A DNA stretch of 62,808 nucleotides, the filler included, from Phoronis australis (lineage: Eukaryota; Animalia; Phoronida): the NCBI GenBank assembly GCA_002633005.1. It is 3 parts of 3 records of this genome, joined end to end, with 100 filler letters (N's around TTAATTAATTAA, not from the genome) between each part and the next. Parts side by side here need not be neighbours in the genome. Positions count along the whole stretch, not along the records: positions 18,399 to 49,311 come from NMRA01001284.1; 2 more parts are not named here. The stretch is one strand, 5' to 3'. Below the pieces are notes generated by a model. The model searched no databases and was not told the origin of the DNA. It saw only the letters and a program-made list of their open reading frames with translations. A program made the translations under genes and the position numbers. This document shows, piece after piece, positions 4,301 to 57,222 of the stretch. Positions within the stretch are counted from its first letter, which is position 1. Each line of letters starts with the position of its first letter.

Positions 4301-5885
4301 AGTGCCCGCTCCAAGAAAATCGACTTGACTAAATTTGAGTCAAGTATAAGATAAAACTTTAAATTTTCTCAGTCCGTTTACGAGAAGATCTTATGTTTGA
4401 CTAAGTTCATGTCTTCACAAAGTTTGTCGTCTTAGTTTTAACTAAGTTGCCGGATGAGCAGTTTAATAAACCGGATTTACTTGTACTGGTGGACTTTGAA
4501 AAGGCGTTTGACTCCTTATCTTGGTCTTTTATTGACAAAGTCTTAAATTTCTTTAGTTTTGGTCACTCAATGAAAAAATGGGTCCATATACTAAACAGAG
4601 GGGCAAAGCAATGTGTTATACAAAACGGTGTCACATGTAACTTTTTCGACATAGGGCGTGGTTGCAGGCAAGGTGGTCCGTTATCGCCATACCTTTATAT
4701 TCTATGTGCAGAGATTATGGGCTGGCTCTTTAGACTAGACAATAGCGTTAAGGGCATCCAGGTCGGATCGGTGGAATACAAACTGATGCAGTATGCAGAT
4801 GATACAGTTATATCTTTAGATGGCTCGGAGCAGTCTCTGCGGAAAACACTTCACATTTTAAACCATTTTTCAAAATATTCTGGTCTAAAGCCTAATCTGG
4901 AAAAAACAATTTGTATTTGGATAGGTTCTATGAAGGGTAGCCATCAAAAATGTGCTGTGACGTAAAACTGAATGGGCAACATCGGAATTCACTTTATTGG
5001 GTATTCAATTCTCCAGTGATTTATATAAAATTCCCGACATCAATTTTAACAGCAAGCTTGGTGAAATAGAGAAGGCTATTGGCATCTGGGGAAAAAGAAA
5101 CCTCTGACACTTTTTGGAAAAATCACAGTTGTGAAATCAATAATTATGCCAAAACTTATTCATCTTTTTACAAGTCTCCCGTCCCCCTCACAGGCCTTCC
5201 TGAAGCAGCTTAACAAAATGTTCTACTGTTTTATATGGAACGGTAAAACGGAAAAAATATGTCGTAAAATTATGGCTCAAGAGTACAATGTTGGCGGAGC
5301 TAGAATGATTGACGTCAGCTCCTTTATGAAAGCCATTAAACTAACTTGGTTTCGTAGACTACTTTGTCAAAGTACTACAAGTCCATGGGCAGTTTTAGCA
5401 AATGGTTTGTTATCAAAAGTATACAAAGTATGATTCTTTCCCTCGGAAAACACCACATTTATAAACAAAGATTGAAGTGCAAACATCCGTGTCTTGCAAT
5501 GTTTAAAAAAGAAGTTGCTTTCTACATTTGTACTGAACGGTTTATATATATAAACAAAATGAAGTACTGTGAATTTATACAGCGCTGGCAAGGTCTTGAC
5601 CTTGTTTGCGTAGTGTAATGAATCCTTGCCTCTACTGTGTTTATCTTTTCTTACTTTTGTACATATTAGCACTGTAAGTTAACACCTTAACTGTTCCTTG
5701 ACTAGAACAAAAAGCATCTGTAATTGGTAATTGTGTGATCTGTACTGCACCTATTATACTGAATAAAATTCTAAAAAAAAAAGTTGCCGGATGTCACGGA
5801 AGTATCAAAGTTTGAAAGTTGAAACAAATCTTCACTGAGACTTCAGTTAAAAATGAACTTAAGTCAGTTTCTAGGAACGGGCCCC
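4301..5885. mobile_element. PIF/Harbinger-like MITE interrupted by a LINE
   Basis: Ends gtgcccgctccaagaaaatcgacttga ... cttaagtcagtttctaggaacgggcccc are imperfect inverted repeats; an uninterrupted relative lies at 15741-16001. Confidence 0.7.
4457..5780 (+). mobile_element. 5'-truncated, frameshifted L1/Tx1-clade LINE (RT domain fragment) with poly(A) tail
   Basis: RT motifs DFEKAFDSLSW, GCRQGGPLSPYLY, QYADD, then post-RT L1-type GKITVVKSIIMPKL. AATAAA plus A-tract at ~5762-5782. 13-bp TSD aagttgccggatg at 4444-4456 and 5781-5793. Confidence 0.95.
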
Positions 5886-26739: not shown

Positions 26740-28230
26740 AGATCCGACGGAGTAAAGAAGGAGGGAAGTACCGTCTGGGGGTGTCCTAAACATAAGGGAC
26801 ACAAGCTGTTGATAAGATCCGGCTCTTTTTTCGAGAAGTCACATCTACCACCGGGTACACTAGTTCAAGTGTTTTGGTTCTGGTCGTATAAATTAAAGAT
26901 CACGCACGTCGTGGAAATGTTGAACCTGAGCAACTGCACCGTGATACAGTGGTTCACGTACAGTGTATATCCGAGATATATGTTCCTTGTACTTCATGCG
27001 CGCACCCAGCCTCCAATATGGGGGGGGGGGCTCGAATTCCTGACGTTGTGGACCTTTTGGTAACAAAAATGCGGGCGGACTAGAAAAAAACACAAAAATG
27101 GGCGCACCGCTGTGAATTGCGCGTTTTCTTTAGTCTCATTACGGCGTTTTCCAGTTGCTCCCGACTTGTTCGATTCTATAGCCCAACAACAAATTGGGAA
27201 GATCAACCCTGTAGCCAATACCTTACACGACTGATTAACTCCATTCTGGCATTTATGGTTGGAGGGCAGACTTTTTTGTTCGATAATTGCTCTAATGTCC
27301 AATCAGATCTTAGCTATAGCCTGACTGGGCTGTGCTGCTAAAATGAAAGTTAAGTTAGTACATATTTGAAAATAAAGCAATAGAATATCTGAATCCCGTG
27401 TCAAATGCTGATCATATGTTTAGTTTTTGAATTACCAAAATCGCCCAACTACAACAGAAGTTAAGACAATCCATTCTGCCAGGTTTCAGTAACACTTTGA
27501 ATACTGGGAGATCATTGGCCTGGTTGTTGTCATACGGGACAAAAGACTGTGCTGGGCAGTTAACAATGGAGCCAGATGTTATCGCACGTTCAGAACCTCT
27601 CACGTCTAGAAAAAAGTTGTTGAACGACAGAAAGCCGTCATGTCATTTTCTCGGACGTTTTGTTTCTCAGAGGCGGACCTTTTTGCCCACTTCGCCTCGT
27701 ACTTGCTACATGGAAGCGCGTTACAGCGACTGGGTGGCTCAGGGATCGTAGTGGAAATTGAAGAGTTGCTGATTTCAAGGCGGAAATACAACCACGGACG
27801 ATCCGTCCCCGAGAGATGGGTATTCGGCACCTACTGTCAAGCTCAGCGATTGGGGCGCATCCAACTCATACGCTATCGGAATGCCAGAACGCTGCTCCCG
27901 CTGGTAAGACGCTGGATCGCTCCAGGCTCTATAATTCGTAGCGATCAGTGGGGGTGCCTACCATAGAATCGCCAACATTCCCGTGGTGCCGCCATACCAG
28001 CACCACACAGTCAACCACTCTGTTAACTTCATCGATCCTGTTACTGGTGTCCACACACAGAAAGTCGAGAACTACTGGAGGCACATAAAACAGCGTTTCA
28101 AGGCCATGTTTGAAGTGATTGACAACAGTCTGCCGGGATACCTTGACGAACAGATGCGGCGGTAGAGGTAACAGCGGCGGACGCATTTTACCAACATCCT
28201 CACTCATCTGTCTCAGTGGCCACAATATAC
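26740..28230 (+). mobile_element. Merlin (ISXO2/IS1595-like DDE) transposase pseudogene, split by nested insertions
   Basis: CPKH..IRSGSFFEKSHL...TVIQWF; after the insertion, GIVVEIEE...RRKYNHGR...RWVFG...TLLPLVRRWIAPGSIIRSDQW...HTVNHSVNFIDPVTGVHTQKVENYW...YLDE; frameshifts present. Confidence 0.92.
26995..27699. mobile_element. CATGCGCGCACCCA-type MITE inserted in the Merlin ORF, itself containing a nested ~500-bp element (27137-27642)
   Basis: Homologous to the reverse complement of 61860-62118; TACTT duplicated at 26990-26994 and 27700-27704; nested piece has cattacggcg.../...gccgtcatg inverted ends. Confidence 0.7.
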
Positions 28231-31600: not shown

Positions 31601-32790
31601 CGAGATGTACTAGGTGAGCTTGAATTTTAACACTGCGACTCTTAACGTTGTATTAAGAAGTTGAGTACAGAATGAAAGTTTCGGATTTCAACTAGGTGAA
31701 ATATTCCCACACACTCAGGCACTTTTGAATAACAAAGCAAGGCAGTAAATTATTCTATATTGAATTTTCTCAATTTGGTATGGATTACTGAGCTAAATAC
31801 ACCCCCTATTCGTTCTGGTCACAGTGTTCCAAGTTTTATTGATTTACCGTATTCATGGGAAGAGTTCAGGAACGCTGGGACCTCACTAAAAAGCAATAGT
31901 TTGCGAGATTACGTGAGGCATTGCCGTGTATTTTAAATGAGAACACGTGAATTTGGCTAGATTTGAAGGAAGTTCTACCGTTACTGAACTGTGCCAAGGA
32001 TCTACCAAAAAGTCACGATTTCCTCCGTTGGAGCAACTGTAACCCATGGGCGATATCGCCACCTGTTGGGAAAGATTTTTAATTATAATGCTAAGCTCAA
32101 TGAATCGTCGCACATTTTTGTTTAGTTTTAACAAGATGACGATGTTGATTATGTCTCAAAACACGAACACAAACAAAAGACAACGTTTTCGAGAATAATG
32201 CATTAAGTATAGTGTCGGAGTCTTTCATTTGAATCCGCTCAGGCTCTTCTGAGACGTGATGTTGTGAAATGAGACAAAGTATTTCATTTTGGTAGTATTT
32301 AGCATGCCCTTCAAGTGATTTCATAAGACATGTCTCAATTTGCAGATCTTCAACTGAACCTTAACAAGGTTCACTATAATTTAAGACCTTGTAGCTTATA
32401 CAGTACTCGTGCGAGCAAAATCTGAGATTTGAACCATTGTTTTTTATTTTATTGGAACCATTATGGAAATTGGTCGCCTTGACTCAATCGTCTGTTTGTT
32501 GCACGAGGTGGTTATTGAGTGAATCAAATTATTTCTGGAATATAGAACCACTATACGTCACCCTAGTTGCAATGCCTTATGTACAAATCTCACCAGCAAG
32601 AGCGTTCAAACTAAACCCAGCCATGTTTAATAAAGGGACAAGGGCATTTAACATTGTGGTTTAATATCAAATGAGTTTACTATTCGAAGCTTGAAAATTT
32701 AAAAATTTTGGTCTAACAAATATATTTCTGTATTAAGCTACTATTGCTCGACACTACTAATTATTCTAGTTTATTTATAATATTTTACAG

Positions 32791-34061
32791 CATACGGATG
32801 TTCTTTCTACACTGCCGTACCTACAACCACAGACTCTTCGGTTCAAAGCGAAGACCGAAGTACAGACACCATTATATATTCAGCGCTGCTAACAACCCCT
32901 TCTGCAACATCAAAAGAGGGATCGGAACATAATCTTACAACAGAAACAACGACTCAAGTAACAACCACCAAGGACGAGGCATCTCAGAGCAATACCGATA
33001 CTGAGTTTCCTCCTTCTGATACTGCCCGCAACACGCCCATCGTGTTTCAGACAGTAACCTTATCTTTGACACACTCTACGTCTATAGTTGACCATGATGT
33101 TTCCACTGCAATTGGCGGTATAACCTCTGATAATGATGCTACTGAGATGCCGAAGACAACGACGGTTGTAACGTCAGCAACCGGAGTACACGTATCTCCT
33201 CATCCCGACGAGAAGACCACTGAAGATAGCAAAGTTAAATTGGCGACAACAACCTCTACCATCGAGAAAAAGGTTTCACATGCTCCCTACTTCATGACTA
33301 CTGAAGACAGCATGACTAAAATCACGTCAACGATTGTTAGAACGTCTTTAACGGAGGAAAATGTTTCTCTTGGAGCTAACACTAAGACAACCAAGGGAAG
33401 TGCTGCTGAAACCATGTTTAGCACGTCTACAATAGGTAAAGAAGTTTCTCTTGGTACCGACCTTAAGAATACTGAAGACACTACCAATAAAATGGTTACG
33501 GCGACGGTTAGTGCACCGGCAACCAGAGCAGATGAATCGCTTGACCATTACCTCATGACCACTGACGCTGCAGTAATGACAAAGACGGATAGTAAATTGA
33601 CATCTGTAACAGGTGCTTCCATTGGGTACGACACCAGCGTCATCGACTCGGGCAAAAGCGGTACTCCTACTGTGGCAGACAGTATGTCCACTGATGATGG
33701 CAGCACCGGCACGAGAGTAACTAGCCACATAGCGTCAACAACTTTCAACCGTAGAGCAGCCGTACATAATCAGACAACTACCAACAAGCATGTGTCATTG
33801 GGTAGAGCAAGTGAAGCAGCAGCAACAACAACAGCAGAAGCAGCGCCAACAGATTCGACCATCAGAGTCACTTCTGAAGCAACCCAGGGCTCGGCTCGCC
33901 ATAACAAAGATGGAATGAGCGATCTACATATTGGTCTGATCACAGGCGCTTGTGTTCTTCTGGTGGTTGTGATTGTGGTTATTACAGTATGTGGCCTAGG
34001 GAAAGCCAAACACAGGTACAGTGGTTATGGGCGTGTTTCAGGAAAAAGCGGCTTAAACTAA
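32791..34061 (+). CDS. Mucin-like Ser/Thr-rich single-pass membrane protein, terminal exon
   Basis: tattttacAG acceptor; open frame extends 251 nt upstream of the tracked ORF; S/T-rich ectodomain, TM LHIGLITGACVLLVVVIVVITVCGL, short basic tail KAKHRYSGYGRVSGKSGLN. The upstream signal-peptide exon was not securely found. Confidence 0.85.
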
Positions 34062-42400: not shown

Positions 42401-45084
42401 AATAAGAGTCAGCCCATACAGCACTAGAAAGCGATGGCGCAGAAATCCAGGGTGAATGAACTTACGGAGATAGCAAATCACGAATTCAAATGAGCTCAGC
42501 TCATTACTCATGCACGTCTGCGGCAAAATTAACCGTGACTTTGTCTCGCACGGCTACGACGCGAATGTCTCAGTTGTTGGATTTCTATGAAATGGCCAGA
42601 GTAAATCCTCACCGCTTGCACAAGCAAACGCAGACGAGATGCTAGAAGTAGAGTTGTCGCCCTCGAGAGGATGCACGTTTCAAACAGATTCAAATGTAAT
42701 ACACGCGATAACAATGAGTCAACGACAGAGATTTGTTGTTGTCAGGCGATACACTGGTTAATTTTTACAGGGGGATAAGCACTGAGCACGAAGTGGCCCC
42801 ATGCCGTGTGGATTTACGCACGCCGGGAGAATGAAGGTCACCATGCGAAATTCGTCTCATAGTCCAGCGAAACAAAATCCTCGAGATTAATTTTGTTGCA
42901 GATACGTATGAGCAATGAGCTGAGCCTATTTTATGGGCGGCACAGCAATTAAAAGAGTGTGTGTTTGGGGGGGGGGGTGGATGAAGTCCCCTCAGCCTCC
43001 TTGTGGTGCACCGCCTATATAGACCATGTGCGGAGTAGGACTGAAAAAGTGGGGGGTTATAGCCCCTCCAGCCCCCTACAGTGCGCCGCCCATGTATTTG
43101 AATTCGAGGTGCCTAAATTTCCGTCTGCGCTGGGTGGACAGTGATCACCAGCCAGTCTTATCATGAAACTTGTTCTGTCTGAACTTAGATCGAATTCTAT
43201 TAAACTCAAGACAAATTTCAAAATGCCTTTTTAAGATCAAAAGTAAGACCGAAATCTGTCTAGCCTATGGCCGAAAGTTCGTATGCTAGGGAACAAGACC
43301 ATAATCACTGTTAACAAGTTTCGTAAACATTTTCACAATCTAATGTCCCTAAACAAAGTCAAACTGAAGATTTTGTGCTTCGATTCGAGAACCAGCAAAG
43401 GACCGTGGAGAAAATACAGTGCAACTTCAGTAGAGGCACAATTGAAAATACATCTTGCAGGCATACCGAACGAATTCTCAGGTGTTTCCAAAACAAAAAT
43501 AAACCTCGATTTAGACTTTCAAGACCATGATTATTCTTGAAACAGTATTTTACACTTGCATCTTTAACTTTTGTGAGTTTACAACAGGAGGCGAAGTTGT
43601 AGTCTACATGATTATCTACGGCAACCGTCTACGATACCCTCGGCGAAATCTATATGTACCACTGGTACCACAATAAAAACCCGTGACAAGATTTCTTACC
43701 ATACTAACACGTATAAACACCACGGTCATTAGATACGAACTTTTTCTATTTTCGTGTGACGTTATTGTACATTACAGTCAAGTGACCTAATTATCGGACG
43801 TTTTGGCACGTTTTGCATTATATTTAATTGAAAATACTACGGATTGTTGTAAATTCTTTGCTGAAATAAAGATTTACCTTCACGGAATTGTTCTGTTACT
43901 ATATCTTGTCACTGAAAGCCACATTTATGTTCCGACTGATCTTCAAAAAACACAACAACCAAACCTAAATATCGGACACCATGTTTCTCCATACGCCACA
44001 CCGCGGAAAACTGACTAACCATGTAATGGCCGCGGGCACCTTGTCGCCAAATTTCAGCTCGAGTGTTTTGACATATATGCTGCTAGAACCCAGGTCCATT
44101 CGCAACAAAATTATCCATNNNNNNNNNNNNNNNNNNNNNNNNNNNNNNNNNNNNNNNNNNNNNNNNNNNNNNNNNNNNNNNNNNNNNNNNNNNNNNNNNN
44201 NNNNNNNNNNNNNNNNNNNNNNNNNNNNNNNNNNNNNNNNNNNNNNNNNNNNNNNNNNNNNNNNNNNNNNNNNNNNNNNNNNNNNNNNNNNNNNNNNNNN
44301 NNNNNNNNNNNNNNNNNNNNNNNNNNNNNNNNNNNNNNNNNNNNNNNNNNNNNNNNNNNNNNNNNNNNNNNNNNNNNNNNNNNNNNNNNNNNNNNNNNNN
44401 NNNNNNNNNNNNNNNNNNNNNNNNNNNNNNNNNNNNNNNNNNNNNNNNNNNNNNNNNNNNNNNNNNNNNNNNNNNNNNNNNNNNNNNNNNNNNNNNNNNN
44501 NNNNNNNNNNNNNNNNNNNNNNNNNNNNNNNNNNNNNNNNNNNNNNNNNNNNNNNNNNNNNNNNNNNNNNNNNNNNNNNNNNNNNNNNNNNNNNNNNNNN
44601 NNNNNNNNNNNNNNNNNNNNNNNNNNNNNNNNNNNNNNNNNNNNNNNNNNNNNNNNNNNNNNNNNNNNNNNNNNNNNNNNNNNNNNNNNNNNNNNNNNNN
44701 NNNNNNNNNNNNNNNNNNNNNNNNNNNNNNNNNNNNNNNNNNNNNNNNNNNNNNNNNNNNNNNNNNNNNNNNNNNNNNNNNNNNNNNNNNNNNNNNNNNN
44801 NNNNNNNNNNNNNNNNNNNNNNNNNNNNNNNNNNNNNNNNNNNNNNNNNNNNNNNNNNNNNNNNNNNNNNNNNNNNNNNNNNNNNNNNNNNNNNNNNNNN
44901 NNNNNNNNNNNNNNNNNNNNNNNNNNNNNNNNNNNNNNNNNNNNNNNNNNNNNNNNNNNNNNNNNNNNNNNNNNNNNNNNNNNNNNNNNNNNNNNNNNNN
45001 NNNNNNNNNNNNNNNNNNNNNNNNNNNNNNNNNNNNNNNNNNNNNNNNNNNNNNNNNNNNNNNNNNNNNNNNNNNNNNNNNNNN

Positions 45085-45730
45085 TACTAGTAACCTCAGA
45101 CGTTACATTATCAGCGTTGTGAGCAAGTGTGTCTACGTGCCATTGGTTCAGTAACCATAGTAAAAATTCATGGGCATCCTGTTGACTTCCGTTGCCAAGA
45201 GAGTTGTTCTGTAATCTTAGTTTATTCAAAATTTCGGACGGAGTTGATGTATACCTTTTAGTTGCTTCATATGTGTTCACAAGGATGGTTTTCATATTGT
45301 TTTTCTTGTTGATATTGTCTTTGTGCCAGTTGAGGTTGCATGAGGTTGCTTGAAGTGTAGAGTTCACAAAACACGTGTTTCCAACATTGCAAAGACCAAA
45401 TCTTTTATCTTTTGTTGATTTTTCGTTTGTCTTCCTTGATATCGGGGATGACAAAGTACATGTAGCTAATTGCGTTTCAATCACGGGCTTAGAAATGTTG
45501 CAGAGTTGCCATTCCGTAAATTGCTTGTTGTTTCTTGATAAATATATTGTATAGCTACATCTGAGAGATGTCTGAGAGGCCGTTTGGTATGTTTGTTTTT
45601 TGATTTCTTTGGGGACCTCGAGGAAATTCATTAGCTTCTTTAATGATTTGTAGATGAATCCTCTACTGCCAACTTCAACAGGGAACAGGACTGTTTGCCA
45701 TCCTGCGTTTTTACATATAGTAATATCAGA
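45085..45730 (-). mobile_element. Intronless reading frame: restriction-like endonuclease (RLE) C-terminal segment fused to a USP/C19 ubiquitin-specific protease N-terminal part; probable 5'-truncated non-LTR retrotransposon; runs into an assembly gap
   Basis: Frame open from 45784: ..ICKNAGWQTVLFPVEVGSRGFIYKSLKKLMNFL...ASQTSLRCSYTIYLSRNNKQFTEW (RLE tail pattern), linker, then GLCNVGNTCFVNSTLQA (Cys box) and QQDAHEFLLWLL. Confidence 0.75.
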
Positions 45731-46079
45731 TTTTGTAACGTATACAGTGTTTTCAAATAAATTGAAATGCTTAAGACTACCCCGTCAAGCTCAGTCCAAG
45801 GCTATGTGGGTAGCCTGTGATATAGTTATTTGCCATCGTTTCCATCACAGCTACCTTCAATGTATTCAAAATACGTCTTTTAAGACTTAAAAGTCGTTGG
45901 GTTTGCACATTTTGAACTATGGACTAGTTTTACATGTCACTCGATAATCGCTAAAAGTTCTCGATTTAGCTAGAACTAAATCGCACATTGTCTCAGGATT
46001 AGATATGTTTCAACTCCGCCCTTTAGAATAACTCAATCCATCTCGACTTCAGGCAAAGGAAAACATATTGCGAAGTAAA

Positions 46080-47350
46080 GTAGGGTATTCAATTGGCATG
46101 TTGACTTACACCAGTGTGCTGAAATTGAAAAGAGTTCCTTAAAAACGTAAGAGATATAACATGTTGGACGTTACATGACCTTTACACTAATTGACCCTAT
46201 CCGGTGCATTATAAGCATCCTTAGGAGAATTAATGCAAAGCCCACGAAAAATGTGTTTAATGCTGAGAATCACAGTTGTCTGACGGTTGACACATCAGAA
46301 TACTTGCTGTTTGAAAAGGTCAAATTTTCAGAAGAGAAATGCACCTAATGACCCCATGTTTGCACTAAATGACCTGAAACTTTGGATTCCGAATTGAATT
46401 TCCTGTGCCAATCAGACCTATGAATTTGAAGTGTCTAGCTCAAAATTTTAGTTTGCACCTAATTACCTTTGACCTATTTCGCCTGATTGGATGACCCGAT
46501 TACTTAGAAAAGTAATTTTTTGAATTATCATGTTCACTTATACCTGTGCACCGAATTTGAAAAAGATGGCTTTAAAACTGAAGGAGGAGTAGCATTTTGA
46601 AAATTATATGACCTTTGCAACAAACGACCTCTTCCGGTGCAATATGGGATATGATTATATAACCAATCAAAAGTTATATACTGTCAAAAATCATATGCAC
46701 CCAATTTGGAGTTATTAAGCCTCAAAGTTCGTCGGAAGAAGAATAAAAATGAGAAGAATAAGAATAAAATTGCAGAAAACCCAGGAACAACAGTACTCTG
46801 CGCTTACACGCGCAGAGTAATAAGAATAAGAAGAATAAAATTGAAGAAAACCCAGGAACAGCAGTACTCTGCGCTTACACGCGCAGAGTAATTATGAGCC
46901 CCGATGAGAGAGTAATTGTTAACTCGATTAAAAGTGTGGTTACTGCTAAAACTCACAGATGTTTTACTTCAAGCACTTCAGAACACAAGATGAATGAATT
47001 GGTCAAACTTTCAGAAGAAAAATGCACCTAATGACCCCATGGGTGCAAGAAATAACCTGAAAATTAAGAAATCAAACTCAATCGCACTTAGTAAACAGAT
47101 ATGTAATTTTGAAGTCCCCAGCTCAAAATTTTAATTTTGCACTCAATGACCCTTGATCTATTTTTTCTGATTAGTTATGCCTATTGCGTAGTTAGGTAGG
47201 TTGTTTAATTGGCATGTTGACTTACACTAATGTGCTGAAATTGAAACGAATTCCTTGAAAAACGTAAGAGATAAAACATGTTGAACGTTAGATGACCATT
47301 GCACTAATCAAACCTATCCGGTGCATTAAAACCTCCTTTAGGAGAATTGA
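46080..47350. repeat. Rearranged dispersed repeat with a duplicated hairpin end (HINE/Helentron-like)
   Basis: ~46080-46230 matches ~47195-47350 and ~46315-46490 matches ~47000-47170; tandem ~71-bp unit aagaataaaattg.agaaaacccaggaaca.cagtactctgcgcttacacgcgcagagtaat at ~46760-46892. Confidence 0.6.
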
Positions 47351-48406: not shown

Positions 48407-48889
48407 CATAGGCGGACCTGGGCGGGGGGGGGGGCAGGGGCCCCGCAAGCAAAATGAAACAGCAAGAGCGTGAGGAAATATTGAGTTCAGTAACTAGGAC
48501 CGGTAGCGGAAGAGGGTGGCTCAGACTCCATATCGCGGTGGAATCGTGTTCCTGTTTTTTTAGTCCACCGATAGATTTTCTGAACAGAAGGTCCAAAGGT
48601 CTACATCCCTGGCCCCTGCAACTTTCGGGCCGCCTGTGCACATANGAGGAAATATTGAGTTCAGTAACTAGGACCGGTAGCGGAAGAGGGTGGCTCAGAC
48701 TCCATATCGCGGTGGAATCGTGTTCCTGTTTTTTTAGTCCACCGATAGATTTTCTGAACAGAAGGTCCAAAGGTCTACATCCCTGGCCCCTGCAACTTTC
48801 GGGCCGCCTGTGCACATACAATCACAATTTGCCGAATTCCACGAGGCAACATATGTTGGGCCCCCTGTGGTATCCTAGATCCGCTACTG
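48407..48889. mobile_element. GC-rich MITE with 5-bp TSD
   Basis: cataggcggacctgg ... ctagatccgctactg; AATTC at 48402-48406 and 48890-48894. Confidence 0.7.
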
Positions 48890-50651: not shown

Positions 50652-52174
50652 AGGAGAATGCCACCCAAAAAAACCACCAATATTGTATCAATTTTGATCG
50701 AGTAGTTCTACTCGATAACGGCACGTTCGGTTGCGTTACCTGACACCTGACGGCAGACGAGGTGTTGAAATTATCCAATGACGTCAATGGTTTCACACGC
50801 AATCTGTTAGCAGTTTACAACACGGGTTACTGGTGTTAGCTTTAACGCTTGAATTTATCGTTAAACACCAATAAATCATCAAACTTCGATATAAAACCCT
50901 TAAAAATACACCAATTTCTTATAAAAACATGTTATTTTATTTCGCTGTTATGAATTTATTGGTATTTAGACACACCGTAAGCTACAAAGTTCGGCAGGCC
51001 AATTTACTAAGGTCCGTAGCAGGAGTTTGGGGCCTGTTCGGAAATAAGTTTTAAGTATTCTTCCGTGAAATACATACAGGAGAACTTAGATCTGTGTTGT
51101 TTAGACTTGTGATTTTTTGAGTTCTAAACACACAAAACGCTTGTTATCCCGGCCAGTAGCTCAGTCGGAACCCGATCTGGCCCGTCGCGGCCGCCGGGAC
51201 TGGCGCGAACATAAACCAGCTTGAGTTGGAAACTAAACCTCCAGTCACGAAAAGACTATAACAGTGAGCCAAAGATATAATGTGCACGTAATTATTTATG
51301 TGAATTAGCCACAAAACTGAAAATCTACTTACTTGTTGGGGGCAGCGAAGTCGGGTTCTCCTTCCCAGACCGTCAGGGCAAACGTTGTACAGTAACAATG
51401 ATTTGAATAATATATTTGTATTTCTAAATAAAGATTCCCCTAACATGTGAACATAGCATATAAAATCGAGTAATTGTTCCACAACAGCTTTCTGTCAGCA
51501 AACACTGAATTAGCATGCGCTCACACGGCCTCGATGCCCGGTCAATTACCTTTATTGCCGGCATCAAAAGCCGATAACGCAGTGGTTTATTAATTGCTGG
51601 CTTCTCAACATTTGCACTCAGCCGGCGCCAATTCCGAATATTAGTCAAGAGCTCATCCGACGAAGACTTCACGGGTCGGATCGTTAGGTTTCACAGGCTA
51701 TCAGTTCGAACTGGAATACACTGATCAAGAAATACCACAGAGGCGCCGTGAACATGCACAGGCAACCGAACGTATGGATAGTTCTTTGGTAAGCCGCAAT
51801 TCGTCTCTGTCGACGAAATGCCGGCCACAGACACGGAGAAGCTTCACGGCCTCATACTTGCTATTAACAGCGTACCTTTCATTCTTCACTACCGCGAGCC
51901 ACTTCCTAAGCATTTCGAGCTCACGAGGAAGTCGAAAAAACGATATAACCGCTTTCTTCGCAGTTTCATAGTTCGGACAAGCGGAAACGAAGCACCACAA
52001 TATAGCGACATTCACTCTGCAGACGAACCACTGTCGTCACTGCGTCGTTTCTCACCTTCCTCACAGCTTAACGCGACACCTCTCAGCAAGGTGAGGTCGA
52101 CCGTATTAGAGGCGATGTGGATATAGACCGATTAGGACGGTAAAAAGACTAATTAAACCGGGTGGCATTCTCCT
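50652..52174 (-). mobile_element. TTAA-flanked non-autonomous DNA transposon (Kolobok-like) with a THAP remnant
   Basis: Perfect 15-bp TIR AGGAGAATGCCACCC, TTAA on both sides; ORF 51725-52015 reads CFVSACPN..ISFFRLP..LRKWL..LRVCGRHF. Confidence 0.85.
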
Positions 52175-52813
52175 TTAAGCATATCGGAGGGTGATTAAGT
52201 AAGGAATTACTAATCAAAGTGGATATCGTACATTTTCCCTACATCTGTATGCAAGTACCATTGCCTACAGTTTTTTATTTTCATTTCCTTTTCTTTTCAA
52301 CTCCCCAGCTTTTAACAAAAACATTGAGGTGTTTTACGAATTCATAAAGAGGCTACGGACCCAATAGTTTTACCCGCTCACTGAAAGATGTCTGCGGCAA
52401 AAACACCCTTTTCTGTTATTATTGCGAGACTGAAAGAGTAAATAACATAGATCCACGATGCTTAGCCTTCTGCAAGCACGTCATGAAACGGAAGTTCACG
52501 AGCTTAATGTTCTTTGCATTTTTGGCCATTTATATTTGCCTGGTTCGATGAGCAAAGCGAAATGTGACAGTAATTTTTACTTGGGCAAGAAACAGCAAAA
52601 TGTATGTGTAGTTAACGTGCAACAGATAGCGACATTTAAACATCACGTCATCGGTACGTTATTACCACCTTTCTGGTGCTTCAATTAGCATAACTACGGT
52701 AAATTTTCTAGAATTCACCAATCCAACTTCATGTCTTATACAATTCTCGAAACGTACATATGTACCAAAGTGTTACGTATTAAATTTTATCTGATACGAT
52801 TCCAGAATCTACC

Positions 52814-53265
52814 ATGGGTCGCCGGAGCGAAGAAAACGAGGAAAATGGAAATAAGTGTCTATCATGGTTGAAACGGAACGCCATCCTGATCGCGCTTGTC
52901 ATTAGCATGTGCGCCGGCGTTGGGTTAGGTCTTGGATTACGCGAGCTGGACCCGCCTATGGATAAGAAGTCCATTGTGTACTTGGGATTTCCTGGAGATC
53001 TTTTATTACGCATGCTGAAGATGCTCATCCTTCCTCTTATTATATCGAGCATGATCACAGGTGTCGCTGCTCTTGGTAAAACTTCCGGTCGAATGGGAGG
53101 CATTGCGGTGTTGTACTATATGTCCACTACGTTGTTGGCGGTCATTCTGGGCATAATTCTAGTAGTGGCGATAGGGCCAGGAAATCTCGAAGACGTAGAC
53201 AATATCGAGAAGAAAGGCGAGGCGCAGATTGTATCAGTAGCCGACTCCATCCTTGACTTAATAAG
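52814..53265 (+). CDS. SLC1/EAAT excitatory amino acid transporter, exon 1
   Basis: MGRRS...FPGDLLLRMLKMLILPLIISSMITG...YYMSTTLLAVILGI...DSILDLI R; GTAGTG donor. Confidence 0.97.
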
Positions 53266-53424
53266 GTAGTGTGACAGGAATTGACCTAGTTAATTAAAGT
53301 TTCAGATTTTGTTTAATTTATCTTATTAAATAAGACGAAAATTTTATGATTTGCTAATGCTATGGAGTGATGGAACTGAACACGATGCACGTGCCAGTGT
53401 GTAATGTTGGCGGACTTTTTCCAG

Positions 53425-56023: not shown

Positions 56024-57222
56024 AGGCGAAGGCAACCTTTTTCCATGTCATTTTGAGCTAAAATAAGGTTGGTTGGTTATCCTAGACATATTTTCCACTT
56101 AATTACAGGTTTTCGTAATTTTATTAATTACTCGTCCGCTACTCCGGAAGTGACGTTTTAGGAGGCAAGCGTTTCNGACCTCCGGCATACCACGGACAGA
56201 GGAACAACTGTCCCACTTGCCAGAGTGTGCCGCGACACACTCCCACATGGATGGTGACCTGAGCACCCAAACTGCTTACACCGTGTCGTGTGACTCCCTC
56301 GCCACTAACCTGGCACCTTCGAAATAGCTCCAACACTTTAGACAAGTCCAAAATAAACTTAGCAAAGTTTGGCTCACCGATCTGTTCACTGGACGACGAA
56401 CTGTTCTCTTCACTGGGTGTCGAACTGAGCCTGTAATCACTCCCACTACTCAATATCAGCAGGGCTGCTTAGAGGGTCTGGGCTTGAGAAAACAGCACAG
56501 GGCGAAATACTACTGGTTCCAGGAATTGCACGCTGTGGGGTACGTTCGGAGGCACGGGTGACAGTAGATGAAGTGCCCCCACTGGATCCAGTCATTGTAC
56601 TGGCCACAGCTCGCGAGGCTTCTCGCTTCAAAAACGCACTTCTCGGGGGTGGCGACGGGGCACTGCCGGGAATCAACACAGACGGAATGGCATCCTTCTT
56701 CAGGCGTTGTTTCGCAGGGACCTTCATAAGTTCAGCGTACAAATCCCTTTCGTAATCGGACGGCAGAAAGTGCTTGCCACACACACGGTAATTCTCCACT
56801 GCTTTGTACGTTGCGTGGACGGGTAACGCTGCGTTCTTCACACGAACGAGCCAAGTACGGCAAGTGTGTCATCCATCGGAAAGCGATGCAAAGGTACTCC
56901 CAAAGCGCGCGTGAGCCGATAATTAGTACATTCCGGTACGTAGCAACAGTGTGGCATGTTGCCTGACTAGTAAATGAAAGCAAACGACGACGGAACTTAG
57001 CACAACCGAGGTAGAACAATGACTGACTCGGCAGCCCTCACAGTCAGACTGTATGAAAAGAAATTGGCGCGAAATGCTTGCCTCCTAAAACGTCACTTCC
57101 GCAGTAGCAGACGAGTAATTAATAAAATTACGAAAAGCTGTAATTAAGTGGAATATATGTCTAGGAAAACCAACCGACCTTATTTTAGCTCAAACTGACA
57201 TGGAAAAAGGTTGCCTTCGCCT
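56024..57222 (-). mobile_element. Kolobok-like DNA transposon (internally deleted or misjoined) in SLC1 intron 3
   Basis: ~155-bp imperfect TIRs AGGCGAAGGCAACC..., TTAA at 56020-56023 and 57223-57226. THAP from ATG 56957 (MPHCCYVPECTN..LHRFP..[fs]..WL..RVCGKHF..RLKKDAIPSV) followed by a KFILDLSKVLELFRRC..G..C segment typical of Kolobok transposase N-termini; no DDE core. Confidence 0.88.

Follow-up and report, generated by a model that had tools for sequence, protein, structure and literature searches.

In R2 elements, the encoded protein binds its own RNA, its restriction-like endonuclease (RLE) nicks DNA, and its reverse transcriptase (RT) copies from the 3′ end, a process known as target-primed reverse transcription. 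Early termination is frequent in R2-type elements and yields 5′-truncated, 3′-anchored fragments. In HERO-type elements, the ORF typically ends with the RLE.

Proteases of the ubiquitin/SUMO type have also been described in transposable elements. According to the accessible text of PMC4640811, NeSL and Utopia-1_TSP are RLE retrotransposons with an Ulp1-like protease in the same ORF; that protease is of the C48 type and N-terminal, whereas the domain described here is a C-terminal USP (C19), and full-length members of our family (P0154, P0168, P0181, and P0309) gave no match to a C48 domain. The Ginger paper, in its accessible part, reports OTU or Ulp1 domains in Ginger1, Mutator, and Helitron and one C19 fusion, the Trichomonas transposase XP_001314237.1 (PMC2836005). 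These resemble our case in being transposon proteins with C-terminal ubiquitin/SUMO proteases (PMC2836005), but Ginger1, Mutator, and Helitron are DNA transposons, and the C19 case is a single protist protein rather than a retrotransposon lineage. In the literature we covered, we found no description of an RLE retrotransposon with a USP; Repbase and key reviews lie outside that coverage and may already note the domain. The word "ubiquitin" was not met in the accessible portions of PMC4640811, PMC13580325, PMC6338049, PMC7650587, PMC10294476, PMC5348765, PMC5678591, and PMC11203168, the Ginger paper (PMC2836005) being the exception.

The window analyzed here is a 62,808-nt stretch of DNA from Phoronis australis (assembly GCA_002633005.1). 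We conclude that the locus under study, in its NMRA01001284.1 part, is almost certainly one 5′-truncated member of a multi-copy family of HERO-like non-LTR retrotransposons in which the single protein carries a USP at its end, behind the endonuclease. The HERO-like label is a provisional one, based on motif comparison by eye. A C19 deubiquitinase domain at the C-terminus of a HERO-like RLE retrotransposon is probably new, as far as the literature covered goes. The family shares with the HERO clade a single ORF with the order ZnF-RT-CCHC-RLE and RT motifs that look alike by eye, but where the typical HERO ORF ends, with the RLE, the ORF here goes on through a linker to a complete USP. It likewise resembles R2 (R2Bm, R2Tg) in its RT (E = 4e-15) and its ZnF-RLE fold (Z 17-19), whereas R2 is rDNA-specific and lacks a USP, and identity is ~15-20%. 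Host USPs (USP2, USP12/46, USP8, USP15, and USP21) have the same fold and the same Cys, QQD, His, and Asp boxes; by comparison, the element USPs are compact (about 260-290 aa), intron-less, and 25-30% identical to them in structural alignments.

A sequence-only reading of the locus had proposed an intron-less minus-strand frame, open well upstream of an ATG, in which an RLE tail is followed by a USP. Translation of the window bears this out, with a frame that is open from 45784 down to an assembly gap at 44119-45084. Its product, P0001 (the minus-strand translation of 45781-45086, with the ATG at 45631), contains the motif C..AGW..LFPVEVGSRGF, the USP Cys box GLCNVGNTCFVNSTLQ with its Cys codon at 45373-45371, and a QQDAHEFL box at 45184-45161. 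Residues 128-220 match Pfam UCH (E = 5.8e-13), and the nearest solved relatives of the USP half are USP46 and USP12 (E = 7e-11). A Pfam scan of the RLE half (45781-45400) returned no match, Pfam having no RLE-tail model. However, against a profile of the RLE tails of 24 full-length elements, P0001 not among them, this half scored E = 6.6e-19. In an hhalign comparison with 26 RLE proteins that lack a USP, its score was 99.7%, a value that is partly circular because those proteins were found using P0001; their profile independently matched the solved R2 RLE (E = 4.6e-5).

The frame is thus an RLE tail fused to a USP domain. On the minus strand, profile matches place the C-terminal third of the RLE (C..GW..VEVG.RGF ... 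SLRCSY.IYLSR ... W) at 45509-45716, followed by a linker of ~36 aa with low pLDDT in the models (45401-45508) and, from the Pfam UCH and structure matches, by the N-terminal part of the USP (peptidase C19) catalytic domain at 45085-45400, which enters the gap. The catalytic Cys codon (45371-45373) belongs to a column kept in 101 of 102 relatives, and the QQDAHEF core (45164-45184) is supported by both the translation and the USP46/USP12 matches. The distance from this Cys to the Asp of QQD, earlier put at ~50 aa between the boxes, is 65 residues, which is at the short end of the family range (64-91; median, 75; n = 91), and 3 nt present in the family reads are absent from the window copy at 45344-45347. 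The AlphaFold model of the window fragment (pLDDT 58.5) was too poor for use. The PD-(D/E)xK core, the CCHC knuckle, and the RT are missing from the window copy, and nowhere in the window did we find another piece of the USP-bearing element or a further USP exon.

We assessed copy number from two DNA runs (X1 and X3) of one sample, possibly that of the window. Contig depth over the USP compared with that of the flank contig was 200.8 versus 5.65 in X1 and 1,503 versus 22.7 in X3; as a rough measure, the ratios of ~36 and ~66 can be read as "tens of times" only, since depth is not copy number. A 409-nt contig spans 45687-46095 without differences and joins host flank to element, and, from a second study, a contig of 780 nt extends over 45085-45574 (the last RLE helix, the linker, and the USP) and then ~290 nt into the gap. 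RNA reads from two runs of a further study (303 and 295, from about one-fifth of each run) cover 45085-45724 unbroken; none lies beyond 45724, and no splice joints are listed.

The sequence-only reading had homology begin near 45730; loose ends of the reads move this start to 45716, where 13 RNA reads and one DNA contig depart from the window sequence. When read by hand in the ORF frame, the departing sequence gives K-Y-x-x-L-x-x-x-C, the motif that precedes GW in the RLE of relatives. Since the family reads continue the RLE in frame, the family extends upstream and the window copy is cut at 45716, in agreement with the earlier view of a 5′-truncated copy without RT and core. The truncation junction occupies 45712-45716, the family reads departing at 45716 and three flank-sharing contigs at 45712, which weakly suggests, with no more than fair agreement, an overlap of ~5 nt. 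Beyond it, contigs and RNA reads mark 45717-46040 as low-depth host flank outside the element. Loose ends also occur at 45652 (26 and 15 reads, with in-frame stops) and at 45689 (29 and 17 reads); they seem to come from further truncated copies with different flanks. The element is therefore a multi-copy dispersed repeat with variable 5′ truncation, and the window copy is dead and incapable of transposition. That it keeps only the USP and the RLE tail is explained by early-terminated reverse transcription, which leaves 3′-anchored fragments. Farther out, the repeat at 46066-47348 is present in very many copies (X1 contigs reach a depth of tens of thousands); it has internal direct repeats and two 71-nt units that each hold a 26-nt near-palindrome (46794-46819 and 46865-46890) beside A/G-rich short repeats, and it looks like a non-autonomous transposon.

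At the other end, the remainder of the USP, together with the 3′ end and any target-site duplication, would lie within the 966-base gap (44119-45084). At 45090, the family reads run on in frame for at least 10 codons into it. The part of the USP missing from the window copy amounts to about 190-200 aa by comparison with P0224, P0309, and P0004, which fits the size of the gap. The His and Asp boxes of the window copy would fall there, and a full His box is present in P0224, the closest complete relative. No shared 3′ tail was found in the 3′ flanks of eight USP-bearing loci. On the far side of the gap, 43773-44118 is a further high-copy repeat, and loose ends show its continuation into the gap.

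Reads that are at least 99% like the window copy make up 27 of the 303 and 14 of the 295 RNA reads. Most of the depth sum (97% and 92%) lies on one strand, a sense that is uncalibrated against any host gene. Under the usual library convention, the majority strand here is antisense to the ORF, and the RNA reads over the window copy may be antisense. To compare the two domains, we used 34 of 78 read differences, drawn from 40 that were listed after leaving out six (three from an indel region and three confined to X5 or to a single read). Among 28 listed differences, the USP part has 4 silent and 10 non-silent, and the RLE has 9 silent and 5 non-silent (p = 0.13). The non-silent excess in the USP fits decay and positive selection alike. 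One expressed variant changes the His of QQDAHEF.

A word-indexed search with the window protein gave no longer relatives among 564 candidates, and a scan of metagenome contig DNA gave none among 198 stretches; longer relatives were recovered instead by an index-free search and by profiles. The index-free search yielded 324 matches, the best 150 of which (each a representative of a 50%-identity cluster) comprise 53 with an RLE tail and a USP, 67 with an RLE only, some of them cut by contig ends, and 30 with a USP only. Within the 120 RLE-bearing proteins of these best 150, the RLE is followed by a USP in 53, and 55 end within 60 aa past the RLE tail. Matches to one full-length relative had both Pfam RT and UCH in 24 of 42 cases, and a profile search, whose query is biased toward the fusion, found RLE plus USP in 74 of 84. 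In metagenome DNA, a USP followed the RLE in 8 of 79 loci, many of the others stopping before the RLE, and in five of the eight a single frame without stops encodes RT, RLE, and the entire USP. Cluster look-ups and additional searches yielded many full-length ZnF-RT-CCHC-RLE-USP proteins of 1.4-1.9 kaa (e.g., P0154, 1,631 aa; P0168; P0169; and P0309, 1,523 aa), which supports the suspected retroelement lineage with a C-terminal deubiquitinase domain. Their domain order is N-terminal zinc finger (seen in 19 of 37 long relatives), RT, CCHC knuckle, RLE, linker, and, at the very end, USP.

Clusters of 84-364 members lie on different contigs, which fits dispersed repeats. Nearly all relatives come from ENA, JGI, or Logan assemblies, the labeled contigs being marine metagenome, and the sole named member of the big clade, the Hydractinia gene model P0316, ends before any USP. 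Repeat masking may be the cause of the family's absence from annotated proteomes. Among viral contigs, 0 of 31 stretches were confirmed and there is therefore no sign of a viral carrier. Three fish and rodent gene models (P0002, P0006, and P0049) carry 6-10 tandem USP domains per chain and may be merged tandem genes. In another protein, P0315 (XP_063677760.1, named as a sushi/vWA/EGF/pentraxin protein), the first ~100 residues are a group-B-like RLE tail, so that either the model is chimeric or a piece of a retrotransposon has been exonised.

We next consider conservation. After removal of sequences at least 90% alike, 138 complete RLE-linked USP domains were reduced to 102 with a median pairwise identity of 28%. 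Counts of retained triad residues are 101 (Cys), 102 (His), and 102 (Asp), and 99 domains have the oxyanion Asn, although the completeness (coverage) filter favors intact boxes. Of 53 full-length proteins, all keep the RT xDD motif and 52 keep the RPD..E..K core of the RLE, and the USP ends 0-9 aa from the C-terminus. The RLE-USP linker has a family median of 53 aa (range, 35-456).

Structural modeling gave a similar picture. The AlphaFold model of a relative, P0017 (pLDDT 87.8, with a disordered linker at 368-404), is predicted to adopt the thumb-palm-fingers USP fold: residues 409-668 superpose on USP2 with Z = 29.9 and an rmsd of 2.1 over 260 aligned positions (Foldseek E = 2.6e-23), and residues 86-362 superpose on R2Tg with Z = 19.2 and an rmsd of 3.5 over 220. 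Foldseek on the two-domain model had only USPs in its output. The best structural matches of the P0017 USP are the ubiquitin-specific USP2, USP11, USP12, and USP30 (Z about 29-30), with USP18 at 26.5 and USPL1 at 19.0. The element USPs are predicted to be catalytically active, with ubiquitin as their probable substrate.

Phylogenetic trees of RT-RLE, built from 47 of 127 rows after thinning and left unrooted, resolved three strongly supported groups, with one row unplaced. Group A has 23 rows (16 with a USP, 5 without, and 2 with a long tail), group B has 9 (P0309, P0004, and P0018 with a USP and 6 without), and group C has 14, none with a USP and fish elements included. The window RLE falls in group B, a weak placement on 57 columns only. 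P0224 and P0016 join the window USP in one group (support 97-98), and P0224 starts with the same last RLE helix as the window copy. A single origin of all element USPs was not rejected (p-AU = 0.70). By eye, the RT motifs of groups A, B, and C match the rows of HERO-2_DR, HERO-1_BF, HERO-1_PP, and HERO-1_SP in the accessible part of supplement 6 of PMC5678591. P0309, which belongs to the group of the window, appears nearest to HERO-1_PP and the large clade nearest to HERO-1_SP, and short motifs taken from these HERO rows recur in 34-54 of 54 proteins (PMC5678591, same part). By the same visual comparison, the rows of R2, R4, and CRE seem much farther away than those of HERO. Two USP-less HERO-like elements lie head to tail, 185 nt apart, at L041:1-7165.

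The possibility that the fusion is an assembly join, or an RLE fragment inserted by chance beside a host USP exon, is raised by the adjoining N gap and by the best named matches of the USP half, which are host USP46/12. We regard this as virtually excluded, since depth is high over both halves, the 780-nt contig of the second study spans RLE helix, linker, and USP, RNA reads cross without splice joints, the window USP groups with P0224 outside the sampled USP12/46 clade, and the window holds no further USP exon; a join or chance insertion is thereby refuted. The identity of the locus as a host USP12/46 gene was rejected as well, the stretch being multi-copy, unspliced, and outside that clade. 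Absence of RLE similarity and a single-copy fusion or contig join, which the sequence-only reading had itself set out as grounds against it, were both looked at, and neither was found, in view of the RLE profiles, the multi-copy depth, and the second-study contig. A different kind of doubt concerns whether the USP matters to the element at all, as it could be a neutral passenger gained at the 3′ end and carried along since reverse transcription starts there. In favor of a passenger, the USP diverges faster than the RT and RLE (46% versus 69% and 57% in 70 mid-distance pairs), the RT-RLE trees imply several USP losses, and many of the USP read differences in this genome are non-silent. Nevertheless, neutral drift would not keep the frame open and the triad in place in 101-102 of 102 domains with a mutual identity of just 28%, and we consider a passenger very improbable.

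As to what the USP would do, we favor cis protection, counting for it the recurrence of the fusion, the conserved triad, and the modeled fold. The LxGG motif is absent from all 53 linkers of the full-length proteins, so the USP probably remains attached; polyprotein self-cleavage at LxGG is accordingly unsupported. Tethered to the element protein and acting as a deubiquitinase, the USP would strip the element's own protein or RNP of ubiquitin and so save it from degradation. By analogy, human L1 ORF2 protein is ubiquitinated and degraded via TRIM41/cGAS (PMC10716122, accessible text), a precedent that counts less because human L1 belongs to a different clade. Against cis protection, the USP is absent from 5 of 23 group A rows and 6 of 9 group B rows and is hence dispensable, and we judge the chances that this role is the right one to be evenly balanced. 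The same element might instead use its USP at the insertion site, deubiquitinating histones, PCNA, or repair factors and so easing second-strand synthesis or limiting damage signaling. The position of the USP directly behind the endonuclease on a flexible linker would suit such a role, which the accessible text of the Ginger paper proposes for transposase OTU and Ulp1 domains (PMC2836005); however, no nucleosome- or PCNA-binding module was identified and USP-less relatives are abundant, and we see this as a possible but rather unlikely role. It is improbable that the USP fold cleaves a ubiquitin-like modifier (SUMO, NEDD8, or ISG15-like) or the element's own polyprotein. USP18 and USPL1 do have the same fold, weak sub-threshold matches to Peptidase_C98 (SUMO isopeptidase) occurred in 2 of 51 proteins scanned, and NeSL/Utopia carry an Ulp1-like protease (PMC4640811, accessible text), but USP2, USP11, USP12, and USP30 score far above USPL1, and the linkers offer no LxGG site for self-processing.

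A bolder reading, which we advance tentatively and think more doubtful than probable, is that these elements form an old, widespread, and undescribed HERO-like branch that captured a host USP once and kept it catalytically intact across two deep sub-lineages. The USP would then serve in counter-defense against ubiquitin-mediated restriction, its surface changing fast through an arms race with the host, as a retrotransposon counterpart of viral deubiquitinases. The lineage would be one of non-LTR retrotransposons with a C19 deubiquitinase inside the integration protein. The reason for which transposons retain ubiquitin/SUMO proteases has been a matter of guesswork from the Ginger paper onward, if not longer (PMC2836005, accessible text). 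In this family, some close relatives form natural pairs, one bearing the USP and one lacking it, so that a Cys mutant could test the question directly. In addition, the family provides more than 100 compact stand-alone USP domains and may be relevant to protein stability where RLE retrotransposons are employed for gene insertion.

Several other features of the window were also observed. THAP-domain frames at 51728-52036 and 56452-56868 on the minus strand (Pfam E = 3e-11 and 5e-6) are probably remnants of P-like transposons, 4405-4962 (+) is a fragment of another non-LTR RT (E = 3e-20), and 27610-27963 (+) is a weak ISXO2-like transposase fragment (E = 1.6e-4). An exact 173-nt tandem duplication at 48472-48818, with one N between the units, is probably an assembly artefact. 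A 426-aa Thr/Ser-rich open frame without a Pfam match at 32781-34058 (+) is possibly a mucin-like exon, and 52784-53266 (+) holds the first coding segment of a gene for an SLC1-type sodium:dicarboxylate symporter (Pfam SDF, E = 9e-24).
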